Source: a virus (taxonomy: Duplodnaviria; Heunggongvirae; Uroviricota; Caudoviricetes). Taken from it: a stretch of DNA of 64,000 nt. The DNA lies in IMG/VR virus record IMGVR_UViG_2713896909_000009, positions 32,001 through 96,000 of that record, one strand, 5' to 3'. Made by a program: the position numbers and the translations under genes. Positions 22,235 through 58,982 of this stretch are shown piece after piece (position 1 is the first letter of the stretch; each line of letters opens with the position of its first letter). The notes under the pieces were generated by a model. That model saw only the letters and a list, made by a program, of their open reading frames with translations. It had not been told where the DNA came from and ran no database searches.

Positions 22235-22583
22235 GTTGTAACCCTTGAATATCAACCACAGAAAGCTCGTCTTTGTAGAAAAAGGCCAAGTTGTGGCCCC
22301 CCCTCGTTTGAGCGTATGAGCTGGGACCAATTTCGTTCTTCCAGACAAATGGCTTCAAATCCGTACGGCGAAGCATAAAAACGCGATTTGTTCCGCTCTG
22401 ATTCCCAATGAGGCAAAAGCCTTCTTTCACCTTGATAGCCTGCAAGTTGTCGAGTTCACCGCTGGTTACACGGCTATCGAACTCCTTGCGGCTTATTAGC
22501 TCCATCTGCATCTGACGACTCCAAACAAATGCCCATTGAAGGGCGATGGCTGAATGGTACCGAAAACACGACATAAAAAACAA
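22227..22583 (-). CDS. Hypothetical protein upstream of hrdC
   Basis: ORF track 118 aa; TTG start; operator-like site at its 5' end. Confidence 0.4.
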
Positions 22584-22599
22584 TATTTATTAGTGCAAT
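22583..22599 (-). promoter_or_regulatory. C1-operator-like site (15/17)
   Basis: ATATTTATTAGTGCAAT. Confidence 0.45.
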
Positions 22600-22680
22600 T
22601 TTGTAGTAAGTAAACGCCATACAGACCACAAATAACCTAAGTTAAAATAACGAAAATCAGAGCAAATCATTGGTGATGAC

Positions 22681-22965
22681 GTGGCAAGTATTGCAACAAA
22701 AGACAGCATTTGTTCGGGGCACGGAGGATTCCCATCCAGGCCTCCTGTAGAGAGTGAACCACTACTTAAAGTCAACGGAGTCGAAGTGTTAGTTGATGGT
22801 AAGCAATATGCACAGCATACCGATGGAAACAGTACGCACGGTGGGCAAGCTATATCAACCAGGGCATGGTTTACCGTCAATGGTAAAGGGGTCGTATGCG
22901 TTGGTGACCCTGTTTCATGCGGTTCTACCGTAGCGTCAGGAGACGGCCTAGTTCAGGTAAGTTAG
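22681..22965 (+). CDS. Small Cys/Gly-rich protein, possibly PAAR-like spike-tip protein
   Basis: ORF track 94 aa; GTG start; repeated GD, VNG, CG elements. Confidence 0.35.
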   Translation: MASIATKDSICSGHGGFPSRPPVESEPLLKVNGVEVLVDGKQYAQHTDGNSTHGGQAISTRAWFTVNGKGVVCVGDPVSCGSTVASGDGLVQVS

Positions 22966-22973
22966 GAGATATC

Positions 22974-23762
22974 ATGCTGGAAAAAGACTACCAGTTATCC
23001 GCATATAAAAAATTGGCCGCAGCCGGTGGGATGAAAACACCTGGCGCCATAACATCGGCACGAAACAGTGCTAACACGGCAAAACAGCTTGCAGAAGAAT
23101 TGATCGGATTAATTTTGGATACAATTGTCTATCCCGACACTATTACCAGCTATGTTTCAACGATCAGAACAACCACAACCGGCTTAACGAACATTGGAGA
23201 ACTGGCAACTAAGCACGCGGACCTGTTGGCTGGTTATGCAGATCTGTCAATGCTGCTTCAACTCAATATTGGTTGGGATGTTTACTGCCGTGCTAATGAG
23301 CGAGAAGTATCAGAACTGCCGATCTCTATTGCCATTGGTGATGTGACTATTACTAAATCGCTTGAGGACGCTGTAAACGCGCTTAATACATCAAGTTTAG
23401 TCACTGCTATGGGGGAGATTAACCAGACCCTTAACACTGGCTCAGGAAGCTCGTCAGGCTCTGGTTCAGGCGGCGGCACTGCCACTCCCCCACCAGCACT
23501 AACAGAAGAGCAAATTGAATCTCTGAAAGTAGCAACTGAACAGTTTGGGGTTGTTTTCAACCAGACAACAGCGCCCACAACTGCGTTACAACAGCAGTAT
23601 GAACGAGCGAATGAAAGCGCCAACGTAGCCATAACTGCTTATAACCATGCTATCGGTACCGCGCTTGCGGAAGCATCAGCAAATAAGGCCAGCACAGCCA
23701 GCGCAGTCGCCGCTTTGGTTCCTGATTCTGTTCTTGATGAATTAAACAAAGCGGCACGGTAA
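22974..23762 (+). CDS. Hypothetical protein
   Basis: ORF track 22917-23762; start moved to ATG 22974 preceded by AGGAGA; Gly/Ser-rich linker. Confidence 0.55.
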   Translation: MLEKDYQLSAYKKLAAAGGMKTPGAITSARNSANTAKQLAEELIGLILDTIVYPDTITSYVSTIRTTTTGLTNIGELATKHADLLAGYADLSMLLQLNIGWDVYCRANEREVSELPISIAIGDVTITKSLEDAVNALNTSSLVTAMGEINQTLNTGSGSSSGSGSGGGTATPPPALTEEQIESLKVATEQFGVVFNQTTAPTTALQQQYERANESANVAITAYNHAIGTALAEASANKASTASAVAALVPDSVLDELNKAAR

Positions 23763-23801
23763 CAAAGGACTTCATTGATAATTTTTCTTCAGGAGGAAGA
23801 C

Positions 23802-24224
23802 ATGTCATTCTTTTCTACGTTAAAAACAGCTTTGTCTTTGAAGGAGAAACTTGCTGCTACTGGTGTTCTTGTTCTGATTTGCGCACTTGTTGGTGCTGGG
23901 TTTGCATGGGAACGTCATCAGCTAAAGCAAGCCATGGAGAAAATTGGCAGTCTTGATCAGGCTGTTAAGGAACGTGATAAGTCAATAATGGATCTTAACC
24001 AGACCATTGAGACGATGAACAAAGCAGAGCAACATTTTCACAGCCAGGCAGTGAAAAATGAATCAGAACAAGCCAAGTATGCTGACAGGCAAATGGAACG
24101 AAAAGCTGAAGTTCAGAAACAACTTGTTGCGGCGGGTAATGTTCGCCAGCGCATTCCTGCTGACACTCAGCGGTTGCTCCGGGAGTCGATCAGCGAATTT
24201 AACGCCGACGCCGACAAAGATTAA
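23802..24224 (+). CDS. Membrane-anchored coiled-coil protein (i-spanin-like)
   Basis: ATG 23802 after AGGAGGA; N-terminal TM segment ATGVLVLICALVGAGFAW then predicted coiled coil. Confidence 0.4.
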   Translation: MSFFSTLKTALSLKEKLAATGVLVLICALVGAGFAWERHQLKQAMEKIGSLDQAVKERDKSIMDLNQTIETMNKAEQHFHSQAVKNESEQAKYADRQMERKAEVQKQLVAAGNVRQRIPADTQRLLRESISEFNADADKD

Positions 24225-24390
24225 TCACCCTGCCCCCAAAAGTGCGTTTATGTGCAGGATGCCAGAGTTTAGCAGTGAATATTTTGATGATCTGCCAGCC
24301 TATATCCTCGATACAGAAACGATGTTGATGGGGATTAACAGGAAGAATCGCAACGTTAATGATTACAACCGCGCTATCAGCGGTAACTAA
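24139..24390 (+). CDS. Lipoprotein precursor overlapping previous gene out of frame (o-spanin-like)
   Basis: MFASAFLLTLSGC lipobox followed by Pro/Thr-rich segment; ORF track 24058-24390. Confidence 0.4.
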   Translation: MFASAFLLTLSGCSGSRSANLTPTPTKINHPAPKSAFMCRMPEFSSEYFDDLPAYILDTETMLMGINRKNRNVNDYNRAISGN

Positions 24391-24401
24391 AAGGGATTTT
24401 T

Positions 24402-24794
24402 ATGTCTGATAAAGTAACAGTAAAGCAAACTATCAACAAAGCGACTTCAATCTACAAAATTGAGCACATCACAGTTGGCAAGCCAGGATCTGAACAATAC
24501 CGTCATGCTTTCGAGCTTGCCGATCAGCTTGGTTTAAAACACCCGGATTGCATCGAGCATGTATTTCCGACCTATGCTGATGAGCAATGTACTCATGTTC
24601 TTACCGAAGAGGATTTTTTCAGCACTGAAGAACGAGAAGGCGTTGATCGCTGCATTGGTGTGATTTGTTCTTCGGTAAGTGATGAGTTATTCCCTAATGT
24701 GCCTGAATATGGTGGTATTGGATACCAATTCCTGTACGGGGGCGATGAGCTTAAATGCTATGAACATGGTCTTCTCATCGAAAGCGTAGAATAA
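24402..24794 (+). CDS. Hypothetical protein
   Basis: ORF track 130 aa. Confidence 0.55.
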   Translation: MSDKVTVKQTINKATSIYKIEHITVGKPGSEQYRHAFELADQLGLKHPDCIEHVFPTYADEQCTHVLTEEDFFSTEEREGVDRCIGVICSSVSDELFPNVPEYGGIGYQFLYGGDELKCYEHGLLIESVE

Positions 24795-24808
24795 TACAGC
24801 TTCCTTCC

Positions 24809-24833
24809 AACCGGCTTTGTTGGCCGGTTTATT
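24809..24833 (+). terminator. Rho-independent terminator
   Basis: AACCGGC-TTTGTTG-GCCGGTT then T-run. Confidence 0.55.
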
Positions 24834-24837
24834 CAAC

Positions 24838-24846
24838 TTATCCACA
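24838..24846 (+). promoter_or_regulatory. DnaA box (TTATCCACA) at plasmid origin
   Basis: Perfect consensus 9-mer adjacent to GATC cluster and iterons. Confidence 0.55.
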
Positions 24847-24851
24847 GCATA

Positions 24852-24908
24852 GATCCAATAAACAGATCCAAAAGAGAACCCTAGAAGATCCAAATAAGAT
24901 CCCGGATC
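24852..24908. repeat. Cluster of five GATC sites (four AGATCC heptamer-type repeats) of oriR
   Basis: GATC at 24852, 24865, 24887, 24898, 24905. Confidence 0.55.
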
Positions 24909-24949
24909 GCTGCAGGCCGCGCCATGTCTGGCCTGAAACGTGATCAACA

Positions 24950-25056
24950 TTGACTATATGCGATTTTATGTTGACTGTACACGATTTATTGTTGACTACA
25001 CGCGATTTTATGTTGACTATACGCGATATAAACATTGACTGTACGCGATTTTAAAG
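24950..25056 (+). repeat. incC-type iterons (5 direct repeats, about 21-bp period) of the plasmid origin
   Basis: TTGACTATATGCGATTT-like units starting 24950, 24971, 24992, 25013, 25035. Confidence 0.8.
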
Positions 25057-25129
25057 CCTGAATATTCACAGCTGTTGATAACAGCCATCCAAATTGACGT
25101 CAGGTCGCGCCACACATGGAGAAACTACG

Positions 25130-26014
25130 ATGCCGGAAGAAAGTAAAGGCTTCCTTAGCGTTGAAGAAGTTGCAGGAAATACAGGAGAAATCCACAGCCT
25201 GAAGCCCAATAACAACAGCACTATACAACCCATTGCTTTGTTGCGTTTAGGTGTGTTTGTGCCAACCTTAAAATCTACCAATGTGGCGCTACGTCGCGGA
25301 TCGTCAGTTACAACAAACACAACGAACGCAACCGAAGAACTATCAAGCCTCAAAATTGTTGAGCAGGAAGGCTATGAGGGAATTGAAATTCATGGTCCAC
25401 GCTTGGATATGGATACTGATTTTAAGGTGTGGGTGGGCATAACCTCCGCGTTGTTTGACTACGCACCTGATGATGACGGTATAATCACCCTGCCATTCTC
25501 CGAGTTTGCCGATCGATGCGGCTATCCACGTAAGCGCCTTTCAAAGGCGTTCCGTAAAAGTATTGATGACTCTCTGACACGCATTCAGCAGACAGTTGTC
25601 AAATTCCGCTTCCCGGCGGCAAAAGGTCATCTCAATAACATTAACGTCAACTTGTTGGCATATAGCAGCCTGAATACCGAGCTTGATGTTATCGAGATCC
25701 AGCCGCAGAAACAGCTATCTGAACTTTACTATGTTGACTATAAGCGAATCCTGAAGCTGAAGATGCTGGATAAGCTCGGGCGCAAAGAGACGGCCAAGGT
25801 ACTGTATACATTCTTTGAGGCTCTACCCGCCAACCCGGCACCTGTCAGCATTGAGCGCCTTAGAGCAAGGCTTAATCTCAAATCATCCGTTAGCGTGCAA
25901 AATAGCGTTATCAGAAAAGCCATGAAAGATTTGGAAGCTATTGAATATCTTAAATTTTCAGAGATAAAAAACGGCAGGAAAATCGGCTTCCAGATCCATA
26001 AGCGCAATCCATAA
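25130..26014 (+). CDS. repA: Iteron-binding plasmid replication initiator RepA (P1/P7 RepA family, diverged)
   Basis: ORF track 25094-26014; start placed at ATG 25130 (GGAG upstream); GPRLDMDTDFK and flanking iterons. Confidence 0.8.
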   Translation: MPEESKGFLSVEEVAGNTGEIHSLKPNNNSTIQPIALLRLGVFVPTLKSTNVALRRGSSVTTNTTNATEELSSLKIVEQEGYEGIEIHGPRLDMDTDFKVWVGITSALFDYAPDDDGIITLPFSEFADRCGYPRKRLSKAFRKSIDDSLTRIQQTVVKFRFPAAKGHLNNINVNLLAYSSLNTELDVIEIQPQKQLSELYYVDYKRILKLKMLDKLGRKETAKVLYTFFEALPANPAPVSIERLRARLNLKSSVSVQNSVIRKAMKDLEAIEYLKFSEIKNGRKIGFQIHKRNP

Positions 26015-26015
26015 T

Positions 26016-26285
26016 ATTGACTATATGCGATAGCGAGAAGTTGACTATAGACGACATTCGTTGACGCTGGTGGATTTTTGCTGGCGTCAATATTCTGCAA
26101 GTCGCTATTGAGATGGCTTTTAGGGTCATTTCATCGCGTATAGTCAACGTTTCTCCCGACAATATCTTACATAGTCGATCTTTGGTGGAGTTAAATCGAT
26201 TACAGTCAACTTTTGACTGTAGTCACATCGCGCATAGTCAACTATTCACATTAACCTTCGCGCATAGTCAACATTTGCGCGGTTC
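26016..26285. repeat. incA-type iteron array (about 9 copies, both orientations)
   Basis: TTGACTATA / TATAGTCAA-containing units repeated downstream of repA. Confidence 0.7.
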
Positions 26286-56044: not shown

Positions 56045-57193
56045 TTATCCAAACCAATTTTCTAGAACATTTTCAAATTTATGGGTAACTTGCCACCATA
56101 AATAGTTCTCTAATACATATTTCTTTCCGTTATTTGCAATTTGTTCTAATTTTTCGGAGTGTAATGTTTCATATATATCACTAGCTAAACTTTCTGGCAA
56201 CATTGGTTCATTTATATGAAATCCTGTATGGTTATTTTTTACAAATTCAACCATTCCACCTCGAGTGCTAACTAAAACGGGTTTTCCTGCCCCCATAGCT
56301 TCTATAGCAACCATGCAGAACGGTTCTTGAAACTGAGATGGGATTACAACTAGATCGGCTATAGGATAGTAACGGTACATATCATCTGGTTTTACCCCGC
56401 CAACAAGATGACAACGCGAACCAATAGTTCCAGCAAGTTCCCTTACTTGTTTTTGATATGCAGCTTTTTCTCCTTTATCTTTATTATTGTAGTCACCAAC
56501 AACTACAAGTTCTATATTGTCACATGATTTTATCAATTTTTTAAACGCTTGTAATAGTAAAACAGTCCCTTTTTCAGGGGAGATCCTTCCCGCATAAAAG
56601 ATAACTTTTTTCTCAGAGGGAATGCCTAAATCTTGTTTTGTTAGCGGGGGTAGCCCTTTATCTAGATTGTGTGGTTCTGTACCATTAGGAACTATACAAA
56701 TTTCAGCGTCAGGAAGATGTTTTTCATAAAAATCCTTTAAATACTGACTTGGAACAAGCATTTTCACATTGCTATCTAGCCCTTTCGGTGTAAAGGCATT
56801 ATGCATATGCATTATCATTTTTGCGTCAGGAGCTTTCTCTCTAATTTGACGATAAAGTTTCATGCTGTTATGAACAATAATAATGCTATCGTTTGTGATA
56901 TTGAAATCTTTAGCAATGTTTAACACTCGTTGTGAATATGGAATAGGATCTATTCTGCTCCATTTTTGAAATATCCGTTTATAAAGACGGCTAAACCCTA
57001 TTCTATGGATAGAGCATCGCTCATTAACAATATCTTTTTCTGAGAAACCATCCTCTCGAATGCATGCTATACGATTTGGTATTCTTGTTCTCTTTGCGAC
57101 TTGATATATCCAAGTTTCAACAGCTGCTGCGCCACGAGGTGGTATTGAAAATATTGGTGTAACTGTAAATATTAATTTGTCAATCATGAGCAA
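56045..57193 (-). CDS. GT1-family (GT-B, GT4-like) glycosyltransferase, AT-rich cargo
   Basis: ORF track 382 aa; EAMGAGKPVLVSTRGG and PSQFQEPFCMVAIEA signature region. Confidence 0.8.
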   Translation of the reverse strand: MLMIDKLIFTVTPIFSIPPRGAAAVETWIYQVAKRTRIPNRIACIREDGFSEKDIVNERCSIHRIGFSRLYKRIFQKWSRIDPIPYSQRVLNIAKDFNITNDSIIIVHNSMKLYRQIREKAPDAKMIMHMHNAFTPKGLDSNVKMLVPSQYLKDFYEKHLPDAEICIVPNGTEPHNLDKGLPPLTKQDLGIPSEKKVIFYAGRISPEKGTVLLLQAFKKLIKSCDNIELVVVGDYNNKDKGEKAAYQKQVRELAGTIGSRCHLVGGVKPDDMYRYYPIADLVVIPSQFQEPFCMVAIEAMGAGKPVLVSTRGGMVEFVKNNHTGFHINEPMLPESLASDIYETLHSEKLEQIANNGKKYVLENYLWWQVTHKFENVLENWFG

Positions 57194-57731
57194 CTATCCT
57201 CTTATAATCTTTTTCCTTTAAATGTTTTTTTAGGGTTGCGGGAGAGCCCGCATACATTGTATTAGCAGGAACATCAGTATTTACAACGCTATTTGCAGCT
57301 ATAACACTATTGTCTCCTATTTTTACACCTGGTAGCACAGTTGTATTTGCCCCAATCCAAACATTACGGCCTATTTTTATTGGAGCGCAAATTGTTTCTT
57401 TGGGACGTTTGCTTGGTGTTAGTGGATGCGTGACAGTTGTTAATACAACGTTGGGGCCAATGGCAGAGTTACATCCAATATCTATTGTTTTTGCATCGAG
57501 AAAAACACAATTTGCGTTAATGAAGACCTTTTTATCAATAATTATATTGCCATTCTCAAAATAAAATGGAGCTGTTATTGTTGAGTCTTCACTTACTTTA
57601 ACTCCTGTTTTTTTTAATGTGATTAATTTTTTTCTTTTTGAGATCAAGGTATAATTAAATATATGTCTTGCTTTCTTTGCTTTCTTTTTTTGAAAAATTA
57701 TATAGAAATAATATGTTAGCAAATCAAACAT
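57180..57731 (-). CDS. Hexapeptide-repeat acetyltransferase (left-handed beta-helix)
   Basis: ORF track 183 aa; IGRNVWIGANTTVLPGVKIGDNSVIAANSVV. Confidence 0.8.
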   Translation of the reverse strand: MFDLLTYYFYIIFQKKKAKKARHIFNYTLISKRKKLITLKKTGVKVSEDSTITAPFYFENGNIIIDKKVFINANCVFLDAKTIDIGCNSAIGPNVVLTTVTHPLTPSKRPKETICAPIKIGRNVWIGANTTVLPGVKIGDNSVIAANSVVNTDVPANTMYAGSPATLKKHLKEKDYKRIVAHD

Positions 57732-57755
57732 TGTTGTTTTACTTCCATTTAAAAT

Positions 57756-58022
57756 TTAACTATCAAATGTGGCTCCTATTTCTCGCATTTTGTTAAGTAT
57801 GATGTTTATTTCATTGCTACCGAGAGAAGTTTGGGCAGCTATGAAAAAAAGTATGTGCAATGACATAGATCTGTTATTTTCTTTGTTTATATATTTTCTC
57901 CACTGGCTATCGCTGCTGACCCCGGCTAGTTCTGCCATTTGATTCCCTGTATACCCAAGCGTTTCTTTGAATTGACGCAAATCTTGTGATTTGGGGGGGG
58001 TGTAGTTGTTTATTAACCTCAT
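57756..58022 (-). CDS. Small HTH (XRE-like) protein
   Basis: ORF track 57756-58085; start placed at ATG 58022; LRQFKETLGYTGNQMAELAGV. Confidence 0.4.
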   Translation of the reverse strand: MRLINNYTPPKSQDLRQFKETLGYTGNQMAELAGVSSDSQWRKYINKENNRSMSLHILFFIAAQTSLGSNEINIILNKMREIGATFDS

Positions 58023-58152
58023 ATTAAACCCATTATTGGTAAGCTTTCGTTGGTGTAATGGTAGCACCAATGGGGCTGCTGTCAAGCGTCTTTTCTTTAT
58101 AAATATAGGGAGCCATCAAAATCTGACATCAATTATCTATCGAAATATTTTG

Positions 58153-58170
58153 AATGACTGGTGAGAAGTT
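58153..58170 (+). promoter_or_regulatory. Putative late promoter element (degenerate copy) upstream of lysis genes
   Basis: AATGACTGGTGAGAAGTT about 40 nt upstream of holin GTG. Confidence 0.3.
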
Positions 58171-58212
58171 ACTTTGCATACCATTACCTCCTGACAACGT
58201 AGGAGGGAACTT

Positions 58213-58542
58213 GTGCTTGACACACAGGAATTAGCTCCAGTTGCTATTGCGCTCCTGCTTTCAGTAATTGGTGGGATAGGCACGTTCCTGATGGATGTCC
58301 GAGACGGTCGCCAGTCTGGCAATTTGTTGGGATTGGTTACGGAGATCTTTGTTGCAGTGACAGCTGGCGCGGTGGCGTACCTATTGGGGCAACACGAGGG
58401 CTGGGAGTTATCAATTACGTACTTAATGGTAACGATAGCCAGCAATAACGGTCATGAGGTGATTTCAGGGATGAAACGAGTGAATATCGATAGCATTCTG
58501 AATGTTCTTACAAGTTTGGTGAAAAAGGGAGGCGGGAAATGA
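58213..58542 (+). CDS. lydA: Holin-like membrane protein (P1 LydA-like)
   Basis: ORF track 109 aa; GTG start after GGAGGGA; three hydrophobic segments, charged C-terminus. Confidence 0.55.
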   Translation: MLDTQELAPVAIALLLSVIGGIGTFLMDVRDGRQSGNLLGLVTEIFVAVTAGAVAYLLGQHEGWELSITYLMVTIASNNGHEVISGMKRVNIDSILNVLTSLVKKGGGK

Positions 58543-58982
58543 TTGGCTGGGGTGTATGCGCTCTTGCGGCAGCCTTAGCTGATCGCTATTTGCTAAAACG
58601 CAAGGACATCACGAATTTAGAGCTTGGTGATGTGGAAATTAAACCGGGATTTATCCGGGTGCCGTTCAAATATCGGTCTAAATTCCCGTTTTTGCGCGGT
58701 GCAACGGTCAGATATTGGCTCCGTGATGTTCAGAAGCCGACGACAGTGATTGAAGGCGAACAACGTTGCCTGACGTCGGCTGAACAGGGCGAAAACAGTG
58801 AATGGTTGTACATACCCACTGAATATATGGGTAAAGGAGAACGACTGTGGCATTTCAACGTCATGGTTACGCACGGCGACTCGTTCATTAACCCGTTGTA
58901 TCGGATTTTCCCTGTTACTCAGCAAATCCGCAGAAGTTACGTAATAAATCTCGCACAGGATGTGTCAGATGACGAAAAATAA
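58539..58982 (+). CDS. lydB: Antiholin-like protein (P1 LydB-like by size and position)
   Basis: ORF track 147 aa; coupled to lydA. Confidence 0.45.
   Translation: MIGWGVCALAAALADRYLLKRKDITNLELGDVEIKPGFIRVPFKYRSKFPFLRGATVRYWLRDVQKPTTVIEGEQRCLTSAEQGENSEWLYIPTEYMGKGERLWHFNVMVTHGDSFINPLYRIFPVTQQIRRSYVINLAQDVSDDEK

Follow-up and report, generated by a model that had tools for sequence, protein, structure and literature searches.

The window, which is the whole 64-kb stretch of DNA that was analyzed, contains two overlapping genes, ppfA and mlp, located between genes for baseplate proteins on one side and upfA and a plasmid replicon on the other. The genes and other features considered here are as follows.

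22681-22965, plus strand: upfC, PAAR spike-tip protein, the first gene of a co-oriented cluster (PF05488, phrog_281, and the P1 annotation)
22917-23762, plus strand: upfB, baseplate 'tripod' protein, directly 5' of ppfA (phrog_1559, E=1.5e-137, and the P1 annotation)
23791-23797, plus strand: Shine-Dalgarno sequence of ppfA, AGGAGGA, identified from the sequence, 4 nt 5' of the ATG at 23802
23802-24224, plus strand: ppfA, predicted i-spanin of 140 aa (open reading frame and translation), with a transmembrane helix near the N-terminus, followed by a periplasmic domain that is helical and includes a heptad-patterned stretch
23850-23906, plus strand: transmembrane helix of PpfA, LAATGVLVLICALVGAGFA, codons 17-35 (Kyte-Doolittle maximum 2.35 over 19 residues)
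24058-24224, plus strand: dual-coding overlap of ppfA and mlp, 167 nt, mlp being read in frame +1 relative to ppfA
24058-24390, plus strand: mlp, precursor of the predicted o-spanin lipoprotein, annotated as 110 aa and 71 aa long when mature (open reading frame)
24166-24177, plus strand: lipobox of Mlp, L-S-G-C, residues 37-40 (in wider context LTLSGC), with Cys40 as the predicted lipidated residue
24402-24794, plus strand: upfA, which ends the cluster (phrog_1453 and the P1 annotation)
24946-25048: five iterons
25094-26014: Rep3-type repA
58166-58184: late promoter LPdar, preceding lydA, identical in sequence to the LPdar annotated in P1
58213-58542, plus strand: lydA, holin (PF16083)
58539-58982, plus strand: lydB, antiholin (PF16084)

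The products of P1 upfC and upfB were assigned by cryo-EM (PMC12810830). A terminator-like hairpin (24807-24823) is present 3' of upfA; the sites found in our generic scan for sigma-70 promoters and terminators were, overall, no commoner than expected by chance.

The first gene of the pair had been predicted, from the sequence of this region, to encode a protein of 149 amino acids. There is an open reading frame at this position, but 149 is the length of the frame when it is extended upstream to a TTG at 23775; translation from the ATG at 23802 gives 140 amino acids, and ppfA as annotated in P1 is likewise 423 nt. The ribosome-binding site is identical to that given for P1 gp064 (Kongari 2018, Table S1). 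The product had also been predicted to have an N-terminal transmembrane helix and a coiled-coil body, and we found both. By Kyte-Doolittle analysis there is a single hydrophobic segment (residues 17-35). A heptad pattern is present at residues 46-73, with I-L-V-R-I-L-I-M at the a and d positions; it was equalled in 32 of 2000 shuffled sequences. The AlphaFold2 monomer model has predicted helices at residues 13-110 and 120-137, separated by a break at AGNVRQRIP, at a low confidence (mean pLDDT 66; pTM 0.26) that we judged insufficient for a fold search. Weak matches to PpfA were to coiled-coil Pfam families and long coiled-coil proteins. Outside of the transmembrane segment, 36% of the residues are charged, and there are one Pro, two Gly, and no Cys, including none in the periplasmic part. 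The net charge flanking the helix is +2 on the N-terminal side and +1 on the C-terminal side, a weak positive-inside signal. PpfA is predicted to have a type II topology (N-in, C-out), and the periplasmic domain of P1 PpfA is listed as beginning at E37 (Kongari 2018, Table S1).

The second gene, mlp, starts within ppfA in the +1 frame and extends 166 nt past the ppfA stop codon, as expected from the original prediction of a lipoprotein gene that begins inside the first gene in another frame and continues beyond it. The lipobox that had been noted is present. Its core, L-S-G-C, fits the consensus [LVI][ASTVI][GAS]C, and the LipoP cleavage site of P1 Mlp is at position 39 (Kongari 2018, Table S1). 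Mlp proteins of the divergent clade have the lipoboxes LSAC, LNAC, and LNGC, with an invariant Cys; LNGC is among the o-spanin lipoboxes reported in Kongari 2018. The predicted enrichment in Pro and Thr was found at the N-terminus of the mature protein, ANLTPTPTKINHPAPK. There are six Pro in the 71 residues of mature Mlp, and the Pro/Thr-rich character is confined to approximately the first 20 residues; these residues are not enriched in the conserved C-terminal half (EYFDDLPAYILDT...INRKNRN). In their mature form, all eight sequences compared start with C-S-G, with Ser41, rather than Asp, at position +2. Under the Lol-avoidance rule, Asp at position +2 keeps a lipoprotein from the outer membrane. 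Because the residue in Mlp is Ser, sorting to the outer membrane is expected.

Mlp has one periplasmic Cys, Cys66, and it is invariant. At least one periplasmic Cys that could form a homotypic intermolecular disulfide was found in 507 of 528 two-component spanin systems (Kongari 2018), and the pair described here follows this rule through Cys66 of Mlp. The annotated signal peptide of Mlp is unusually long, at 39 aa. Given the pattern of selection in the first codons (see below), this length may be an artefact of the annotation, and the true start may be further downstream than the ATG at 24058; candidate internal starts are at 24124, 24127, and 24139. The RefSeq name for the mlp product is 'Rz-like spanin', and gene callers often skip mlp or call it as a stub of 43-52 aa.

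We compared nucleotide diversity at the three codon positions across the clade in which PpfA is 57-63% identical (six loci). In the part of the region that encodes PpfA alone, mean diversity was 0.19 at positions 1 and 2 and 0.43 at position 3. In the part that encodes Mlp alone, diversity was 0.15, 0.11, and 0.42 at positions 1, 2, and 3, respectively (a mean of 0.13 for positions 1 and 2). Over mlp codons 28-55 (24139-24221), which make up the second half of the overlap, diversity was low at all three positions (0.10-0.13). No protein-level constraint was detected by this measure in the first 27 codons of mlp. The mlp frame, 109-110 codons long, was open in all eight loci compared, and 45 of the 110 columns of the Mlp alignment (eight sequences) were invariant, including the lipobox Cys40; Cys66 was invariant as well. 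As judged from codon-position diversity, these comparisons show that purifying selection acts on both the ppfA and the mlp frames. The overlapping arrangement was kept in all of the relatives compared and also in phage D6. Because both open reading frames are maintained in the six divergent loci and both frames are under selection, the arrangement goes beyond what would be expected by chance.

The two genes are orthologues of ppfA (P1_gp064) and mlp (P1_gp063) of P1. P1, P7, SJ46, and RCS47 match the window at 94-97% identity, and the corresponding proteins are 97-99% (PpfA) and 94-98% (Mlp) identical to those of the four elements, with PpfA 98.6% identical to its P1 counterpart. The lengths of the genes, the overlap, and the neighbors upfC, upfB, and upfA are all alike in P1. 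There are only a few substitutions relative to the pair in the P1 group; the ribosome-binding region of mlp contains AGGC here and AGGA in P1. The adjoining replicon differs, in that it is of the RepFIB type, as in SJ46 and RCS47, whereas P1 has its own repA. P1 gp064/gp063 are listed as an overlapped two-component spanin, in a family named 'P1' (Kongari 2018, Table S1). The same genes are named as the spanin genes of P1 in Bednarek 2022, with the identification credited to Summer 2007, and mlp and ppfA are among the 21 extremely conserved genes of 77 P1-like plasmids (Wang 2022). The original prediction of an overlapped i-spanin and o-spanin is thus supported and not new: all of the defining sequence features that could be tested are present, both proteins match spanin families in PHROG (see below), and the P1 orthologues were already catalogued. 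The main value of our analysis is a correct annotation, namely that the standard predicted spanin pair of P1, often missed or truncated by gene callers, is present in this P1-like plasmid prophage.

Searches for additional relatives mostly returned the same family. A word-indexed protein search found P1-like proteins with 57-100% identity. Scans of genome contigs (3 loci) and viral contigs (80 loci) found copies that were all 95-99% identical and added no diversity. An exhaustive HMMER search of 1.84 billion representatives with a PpfA profile recovered 34 proteins, most of them either long coiled-coil proteins or partial sequences from the same family; this search found just three further full-length-like relatives and did not reach P2 LysB.

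Profile comparisons connected the pair to the spanins of P2. PpfA matched phrog_89, annotated 'Rz-like spanin' (E=4.8e-25), which is also the best PHROG match of P2 LysB (E=5.8e-61). Mlp matched phrog_30284 (E=3.5e-76) and phrog_456, a family of P2 LysC (E=9.8e-5), both also annotated 'Rz-like spanin', and P2 LysC in turn matched phrog_30284, the family to which Mlp belongs (5.4e-4). When an Mlp profile was aligned to P2 LysC with hhalign, the probability was 88.9% (E=2.4e-6), with 32% identity over 65 columns. In this alignment the lipobox Cys residues are in register, and the Cys of the Mlp motif CRMP pairs with the Cys of the LysC motif CPMP. All of the weak tblastn matches of Mlp beyond the P1 group were to LysC of P2-like phages, to D6, or to an annotated Rz-like spanin of one other phage. 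The link between PpfA and LysB is drawn entirely from the PHROG profile matches, since hhalign alignment of the shallow PpfA profile (Neff ~1.5) to the single P2 LysB sequence was not significant. Scores for the corresponding NCBIfam models were below the equivalog cut-offs, both for LysB (TIGR03495; 20.3 bits against a cut-off of 92.75, E=5.3e-4) and for LysC (NF038368; 14.5 bits against a cut-off of 27, E=0.03). By these sequence-profile measures, the pair is a distant relative of P2 LysB/LysC and not an equivalog.

The original prediction noted that the pair is next to a plasmid replicon and about 34 kb from the holin and antiholin genes. Both observations hold. The pair is followed by upfA, the five iterons, and repA, and lydA/lydB are 34.4 kb downstream, compared to 32.8 kb in P1. 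The distance had been regarded as an oddity, but this layout is documented for P1 and normal there, with the lysis genes distributed over several operons. As in P1, ppfA and mlp are neither within nor beside the lysis cassette, a place that is customary for spanin genes without defining them, and the P1 spanin genes have been described as being 'in yet another unlinked operon' (Bednarek 2022). The genes lyz, lydD, and lydE are absent from the 64-kb window. In both P1 and D6, the pair comes after the baseplate genes upfC-upfB. We rejected the idea that linkage to the replicon is meaningful. D6 keeps the pair without an adjacent replication gene, so its closeness to repA is incidental, an accident of the layout of the P1 genome. 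The intergenic region upstream of the pair contains a site that differs by one substitution from Odmt, an operator for the P1 C1 repressor.

We conclude that the region very probably encodes the two-component spanin of this P1-like phage-plasmid. The analysis directly shows the two genes, their localization signals, selection on both frames, a distant relationship to P2 LysB/LysC, and a conserved gene order; we infer the topology, lipidation, complex formation, and fusion step of the pair by analogy with the work on lambda Rz/Rz1 and T4 PseT.3/PseT.2 cited or reported in Kongari 2018. PpfA would be inserted in the inner membrane by its single N-terminal helix, with a helical, partly coiled-coil domain of ~104 residues in the periplasm. 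Mlp would be exported, cleaved by signal peptidase II, and lipidated on Cys40, and the Lol pathway would deliver it to the outer membrane, where it would occupy the inner leaflet. PpfA and Mlp would then bind each other through their periplasmic parts, forming bridges that thread the peptidoglycan, and Cys66 of Mlp probably makes a homodimer disulfide. These complexes are expected to remain inactive as long as the peptidoglycan mesh is in place; the mesh would be removed by the P1 endolysin Lyz, whose release is controlled by the holins (LydA, LydC, LydD). Collapse of the complexes would then bring about fusion of the inner membrane with the outer membrane, which would be destroyed in this last step of lysis. 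A location at the end of the upfC-upfB baseplate cluster, outside of the lysis cassette, would be tolerable because spanins should be harmless before the wall is degraded.

It is also possible, though unlikely, that PpfA and Mlp are real envelope proteins with mainly a non-lysis role, such as envelope penetration and DNA entry together with UpfC and UpfB, or surface or superinfection exclusion by a lipoprotein expressed from the prophage. Among P1-like elements, and likewise in D6, linkage of the pair is invariably to upfC-upfB and never to a holin or endolysin gene. No Lpa-type late-promoter motif (derived from P1 LPdar and LPlyz, with up to two mismatches allowed) was found upstream of upfC or ppfA, so any expression of the pair late in infection is putative, and the Odmt-like operator site is present upstream. 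In addition, CRISPRi knock-down in P1 did not abolish plating: the efficiencies of plating were 1.3/1.2 for ppfA and 0.24/0.19 for mlp, and both genes were scored non-essential in a study in which lambda Rz was scored essential. These are the only functional data on the P1 pair after nearly twenty years. However, according to Bednarek 2022, laboratory cultures that are shaken can lyse without spanins, and for this reason the plating result says little about a lysis phenotype. Furthermore, PpfA and Mlp are not among the P1 virion proteins identified by cryo-EM (PMC12810830), both are profile-level relatives of LysB and LysC, which sit in the lysis cluster of P2, and the combination of a transmembrane helix, a coiled coil, an outer-membrane lipoprotein in the +1 frame, and a conserved periplasmic Cys is a specific signature of spanins. 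Given the strict linkage to upfC-upfB, the missing late-promoter motif, and the unimpaired plating upon knock-down, it is conceivable, at a still lower probability, that this LysB/LysC-like pair does not act only in the terminal step of lysis and has another role, additional or alternative, either in envelope fusion or penetration during infection or in envelope remodelling in the lysogen.

The non-essential scores of both genes could also be expected of a spanin that is still translated but redundant, if the outer membrane were disrupted during P1 lysis by another factor or by shear forces. The lysis functions of P1 are already known to be redundant, with three holin-like proteins (LydA, LydC, and LydD) that all contribute to lysis. 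We consider this very improbable, because both frames have been under purifying selection over 37-43% protein divergence, with the lipobox Cys and Cys66 invariant, because of the extreme conservation of ppfA and mlp in the P1-like plasmids (Wang 2022), and because no second spanin-like pair was seen within the 64-kb window. Finally, the view that mlp is a chance open frame and not a gene, for which its poor record with gene callers and its unconstrained first 27 codons could be cited, is close to untenable and was rejected based on the conserved open frame, the codon-position diversity, and the invariant columns described above, and Mlp is related to P2 LysC and to an open reading frame of D6.

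The two-component spanin that we propose shares its design with lambda Rz/Rz1. In both, a type II inner-membrane coiled-coil protein is paired with a lipoprotein of the outer membrane whose gene is in the +1 frame, as predicted here for PpfA and Mlp, and both systems have one or more periplasmic Cys residues that could form a homotypic disulfide. In contrast to lambda Rz1, which is wholly embedded in Rz, mlp overlaps ppfA and runs beyond it. The Rz1 precursor is 60 aa, so mature Rz1 is shorter than mature Mlp (71 aa), and Rz/Rz1 are within the lysis cassette, whereas ppfA/mlp are not. There were no matches of PpfA or Mlp to Rz, Rz1, or spanin families in Pfam at E≤0.1, the matches there being coiled-coil noise. 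The PpfA profile (Neff ~1.5) aligned to the lambda Rz sequence with a probability of 1.5% in hhalign, which is not significant, and Rz falls in phrog_13 while PpfA falls in phrog_89. Membership in the lambda Rz/Rz1 family was rejected because there is no sequence match and because the architecture is overlapped rather than embedded.

LysB/LysC of P2 is the model for overlapped spanins. P2 lysB (141 aa) and lysC (96 aa) overlap by 146 nt with lysC in the +1 frame, compared to 140 aa, 110 aa, 167 nt, and the +1 frame here. Periplasmic Cys residues occur in LysB but not in PpfA. The P2 pair is directly after the holin gene Y, the endolysin gene K, and lysA, whereas the P1-type pair is ~33-34 kb from lydA/lydB.

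The orf55/orf54 pair of Escherichia phage D6, annotated as hypothetical, resembles the P1-type pair in gene order. The identity is only ~30%, but the order is shared: a upfC-like gene, a upfB-like gene, an open reading frame for a transmembrane and coiled-coil protein, and a lipoprotein open reading frame in the +1 frame. The D6 pair is flanked by partition genes on one side and by capsid and sheath genes on the other, with no replication gene. The D6 proteins match phrog_214, phrog_89, and phrog_456, all annotated 'Rz-like spanin', and the Mlp profile aligned to the D6 lipoprotein with a probability of 94% (hhalign, E=1.5e-7). The D6 lipobox is LMTLSGC, and the overlap between the two D6 genes, like that between ppfA and mlp, is 167 nt.

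The overlapping genes ppfA and mlp have the arrangement described in the original prediction, and the evidence supports its reading of them as an overlapped i-spanin/o-spanin pair. The pair is not new: its orthologue in phage P1 has been catalogued in this way (Kongari et al. 2018, PMC6139136).

23791-23797, + strand: Shine-Dalgarno sequence AGGAGGA of ppfA, four bases before the ATG
23802-24224, + strand: ppfA, from ATG 23802, 140 aa
24058-24390, + strand: mlp, 110 aa, in the +1 frame relative to ppfA

PpfA has a sole hydrophobic stretch, residues 17-35 (LAATGVLVLICALVGAGFA). Charged residues make up 36% of the other ~104, which include one Pro and no Cys, and a heptad pattern at residues 46-73 was matched by 32 of 2000 shuffles. 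A low-confidence AlphaFold2 prediction (pLDDT 66) has a long helix (residues 13-110) and a second helix (120-137), with a break at AGNVRQRIP. These features agree with the single N-terminal transmembrane helix and coiled-coil body proposed from the sequence. The proposed start at 23802 was also right, but the length of 149 aa was a small error, corresponding to a mechanical ORF from TTG 23775.

As had been noted for a lipoprotein ORF in another frame, mlp begins within ppfA, overlaps it by 167 nt, and continues for 166 nt beyond it. The expected lipobox is present (L-S-G-C, with Cys40, followed by Ser), and the mature N-terminus is indeed rich in Pro and Thr. There is one more Cys, Cys66; it and Cys40 are invariant in an alignment of the window, P1 and divergent sequences. 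In five sequence records (L002, L003, L089, L090, L092), the overlapped mlp was missed by public annotations and gene callers, and stubs of 43-52 aa were called downstream of ppfA.

The region from 22600 to 26100 is 94-97% identical to P1, P7, SJ46, RCS47 and other P1-like phage-plasmids. In the P1 reference, ppfA is P1_gp064 ('possible periplasmic function') and mlp is P1_gp063, with the note 'membrane lipoprotein precursor ... possibly involved in regulation of lysis' and the RefSeq name 'Rz-like spanin'. The abstract of Summer 2007 reportedly places P1 among the classic phages with newly found Rz/Rz1 equivalents. P1 (NC_005856) is listed as an overlapped ('ovl') two-component spanin in Table S1 of Kongari et al. 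2018 (PMC6139136), with gp064 as the i-spanin (140 aa, periplasmic domain from E37, without periplasmic Cys) and gp063 as the o-spanin (110 aa, 71 aa mature, lipobox TLSG|C, one periplasmic Cys), the latter with the comment 'Too long signal sequence'. The Introduction of Bednarek 2022 (PMC9025707) gives the o-spanin role to ppfA and the i-spanin role to mlp. Judged by sequence features, the roles are the other way round, PpfA being the predicted transmembrane i-spanin and Mlp the predicted lipoprotein o-spanin.

We compared nucleotide diversity among the window, P1 and six loci with a more divergent PpfA, 57-63% identical to that of the window (Cronobacter phage JK004 plus five other contigs). 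All eight loci keep both frames open.

Mean pairwise nucleotide diversity at codon positions 1, 2 and 3, by region and frame read
ppfA-only region, ppfA frame: 0.21, 0.17, 0.43
overlap first half (mlp codons 1-27), ppfA frame: 0.13, 0.12, 0.46
overlap second half (mlp codons 28-55), mlp frame: 0.10, 0.13, 0.11
mlp-only region, mlp frame: 0.15, 0.11, 0.42

The ppfA-only and mlp-only regions are under purifying selection, each in the frame of its own gene. The second half of the overlap, which encodes the Mlp signal-peptide core, lipobox and mature N-terminus, has the pattern predicted from two superimposed coding constraints. In the first half, the annotated 27-residue basic leader of Mlp (codons 1-27, 24058-24138) has a diversity of 0.46 at mlp codon position 2, following the ppfA wobble positions. 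Because variation here tracks the ppfA frame alone, the leader is not constrained as protein. This, together with the remark of Kongari et al. on signal-sequence length, suggests that the true start of Mlp may be internal, with TTG 24124, TTG 24127 and ATG 24139 as candidates. At alignment column 24, five of the six divergent Mlp sequences carry a Met. The mature lipoprotein is the same whichever start codon is used.

The pair is flanked on the same strand by upfC and upfB upstream and upfA downstream. All that had been said of its context was correct, including its position next to the plasmid replicon and about 34 kb from the holin and antiholin genes.

24946-25048: five iterons with 21-22-bp spacing, after upfA and followed by a Rep3-type repA
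26013-26054: further iterons
26134-26276: inverted iteron copies
58213-58982: LydA (holin) and LydB (antiholin), 34.4 kb from the pair

In P1 the distance to lydA/lydB is ~32.8 kb, and scattered lysis genes are a known atypical trait of P1 and P7 (Bednarek 2022, PMC9025707). A cryo-EM study of P1 (PMC12810830) identifies UpfC as the PAAR tip of the tail spike and UpfB as a 'tripod' that is anchored on the distal spike; the spanin pair thus ends a small cluster that starts with two baseplate genes. This order is kept in the more distant phage D6 (NC_050154), with upfC-like and upfB-like genes, a transmembrane/coiled-coil ORF, and a +1 lipoprotein ORF of 110 aa with lipobox LMTLSGC and likewise a 167-nt overlap. 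The D6 pair is bordered by partition genes and, on the far side, by capsid and sheath genes; no replication gene is adjacent. The conserved linkage is therefore to upfC-upfB, and in P1-type genomes the pair lies near repA only incidentally. These D6 genes (orf55 and orf54, 3700-4318) are annotated as hypothetical, with orf54 cut to 73 aa; from their sequence features they are a predicted, unannotated spanin pair.

With an Lpa late-promoter motif built from the annotated LPdar and LPlyz, we found no match upstream of upfC or ppfA, although both UpfC and UpfB are part of the virion. Between the divergently oriented genes uhr and upfC lies ATATTTATTAGTGCAAT (22583-22599), one substitution from Odmt (Op68), an annotated C1 operator of P1.

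Several other features of the window and its relatives were observed. Megablast identity to P1 and P7 stops near 24933-24937, and the Rep3-type repA, within 24940-26280, instead has its matches in SJ46, RCS47 and certain other P1-like records; related records annotate it as 'RepFIB replication protein A'. The plasmid replicon is swapped relative to P1. Three genes lie directly upstream of lydA, at the place of lydC and cin in P1.

56045-58085, - strand, containing:
a GT4 glycosyltransferase (PF00534, also PF20706 'GT4 in conflict systems')
a hexapeptide-repeat transferase (PF00132)
a 109-aa ORF without a Pfam match

Megablast against the phage collection gave no match for the segment 57700-58152, and the window lacks lydC; the block may be cargo in place of lydC and cin. 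JAFAFU010000017.1, a contig of 5.9 kb with the title 'MAG: Bacillota bacterium', encodes a PpfA 99% identical to that of the window, and most likely represents P1-like enterobacterial plasmid DNA that was wrongly binned with the MAG.

Localization signals, selection and homology were shown for this pair; topology, lipidation, complex formation and fusion we infer from the spanin model. PpfA would be anchored in the inner membrane, and Mlp would be lipidated and then sorted to the outer membrane, their periplasmic parts associating across the peptidoglycan mesh. Once the wall is degraded by the endolysin Lyz, controlled by the holin-like proteins LydA, LydC and LydD, the complexes would collapse and the two membranes fuse, removing the outer membrane. 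Work on lambda indicates that spanins build up harmlessly until the wall is degraded (summarized in Kongari et al. 2018, PMC6139136); if this extends to P1, distance from the holin and endolysin genes would have no obvious cost. CRISPRi knock-down in P1 gave efficiencies of plating of 1.3/1.2 for ppfA and 0.24/0.19 for mlp, both scored as non-essential; that study scored lambda Rz as essential (PMC10695390). Laboratory cultures that are shaken can lyse without spanins (Bednarek 2022, PMC9025707), so this plating assay is not decisive.

Neither protein matched Pfam, and the weak, sub-threshold NCBIfam matches were both to the P2 pair (LysB, E=5.3e-4; LysC, E=0.03). An exhaustive HMMER search indicated that the PpfA family itself is narrow, and a shallow PpfA profile had no significant match to a single LysB or lambda Rz sequence. 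PpfA matched phrog_89 with E=4.8e-25, a family to which P2 LysB has a match of 5.8e-61. Mlp matched phrog_456, a P2 LysC family, with E=9.8e-5, and reciprocally P2 LysC matched the family of Mlp with 5.4e-4. Alignment of the Mlp profile to P2 LysC (hhalign probability 88.9%, E=2.4e-6) placed the lipobox Cys and the second Cys in register. Weak tblastn matches of Mlp beyond the P1 group were to LysC of P2-like phages, D6, and an annotated Rz-like spanin of one other phage. The P2 genes lysB and lysC are nearly equal in length to ppfA and mlp and likewise in the +1 frame, with an overlap of 146 nt. From these similarities we conclude that the pair is a distant relative of P2 LysB/LysC, and not an equivalog. 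In contrast, lambda Rz/Rz1 has an embedded architecture and no sequence kinship with ppfA/mlp.
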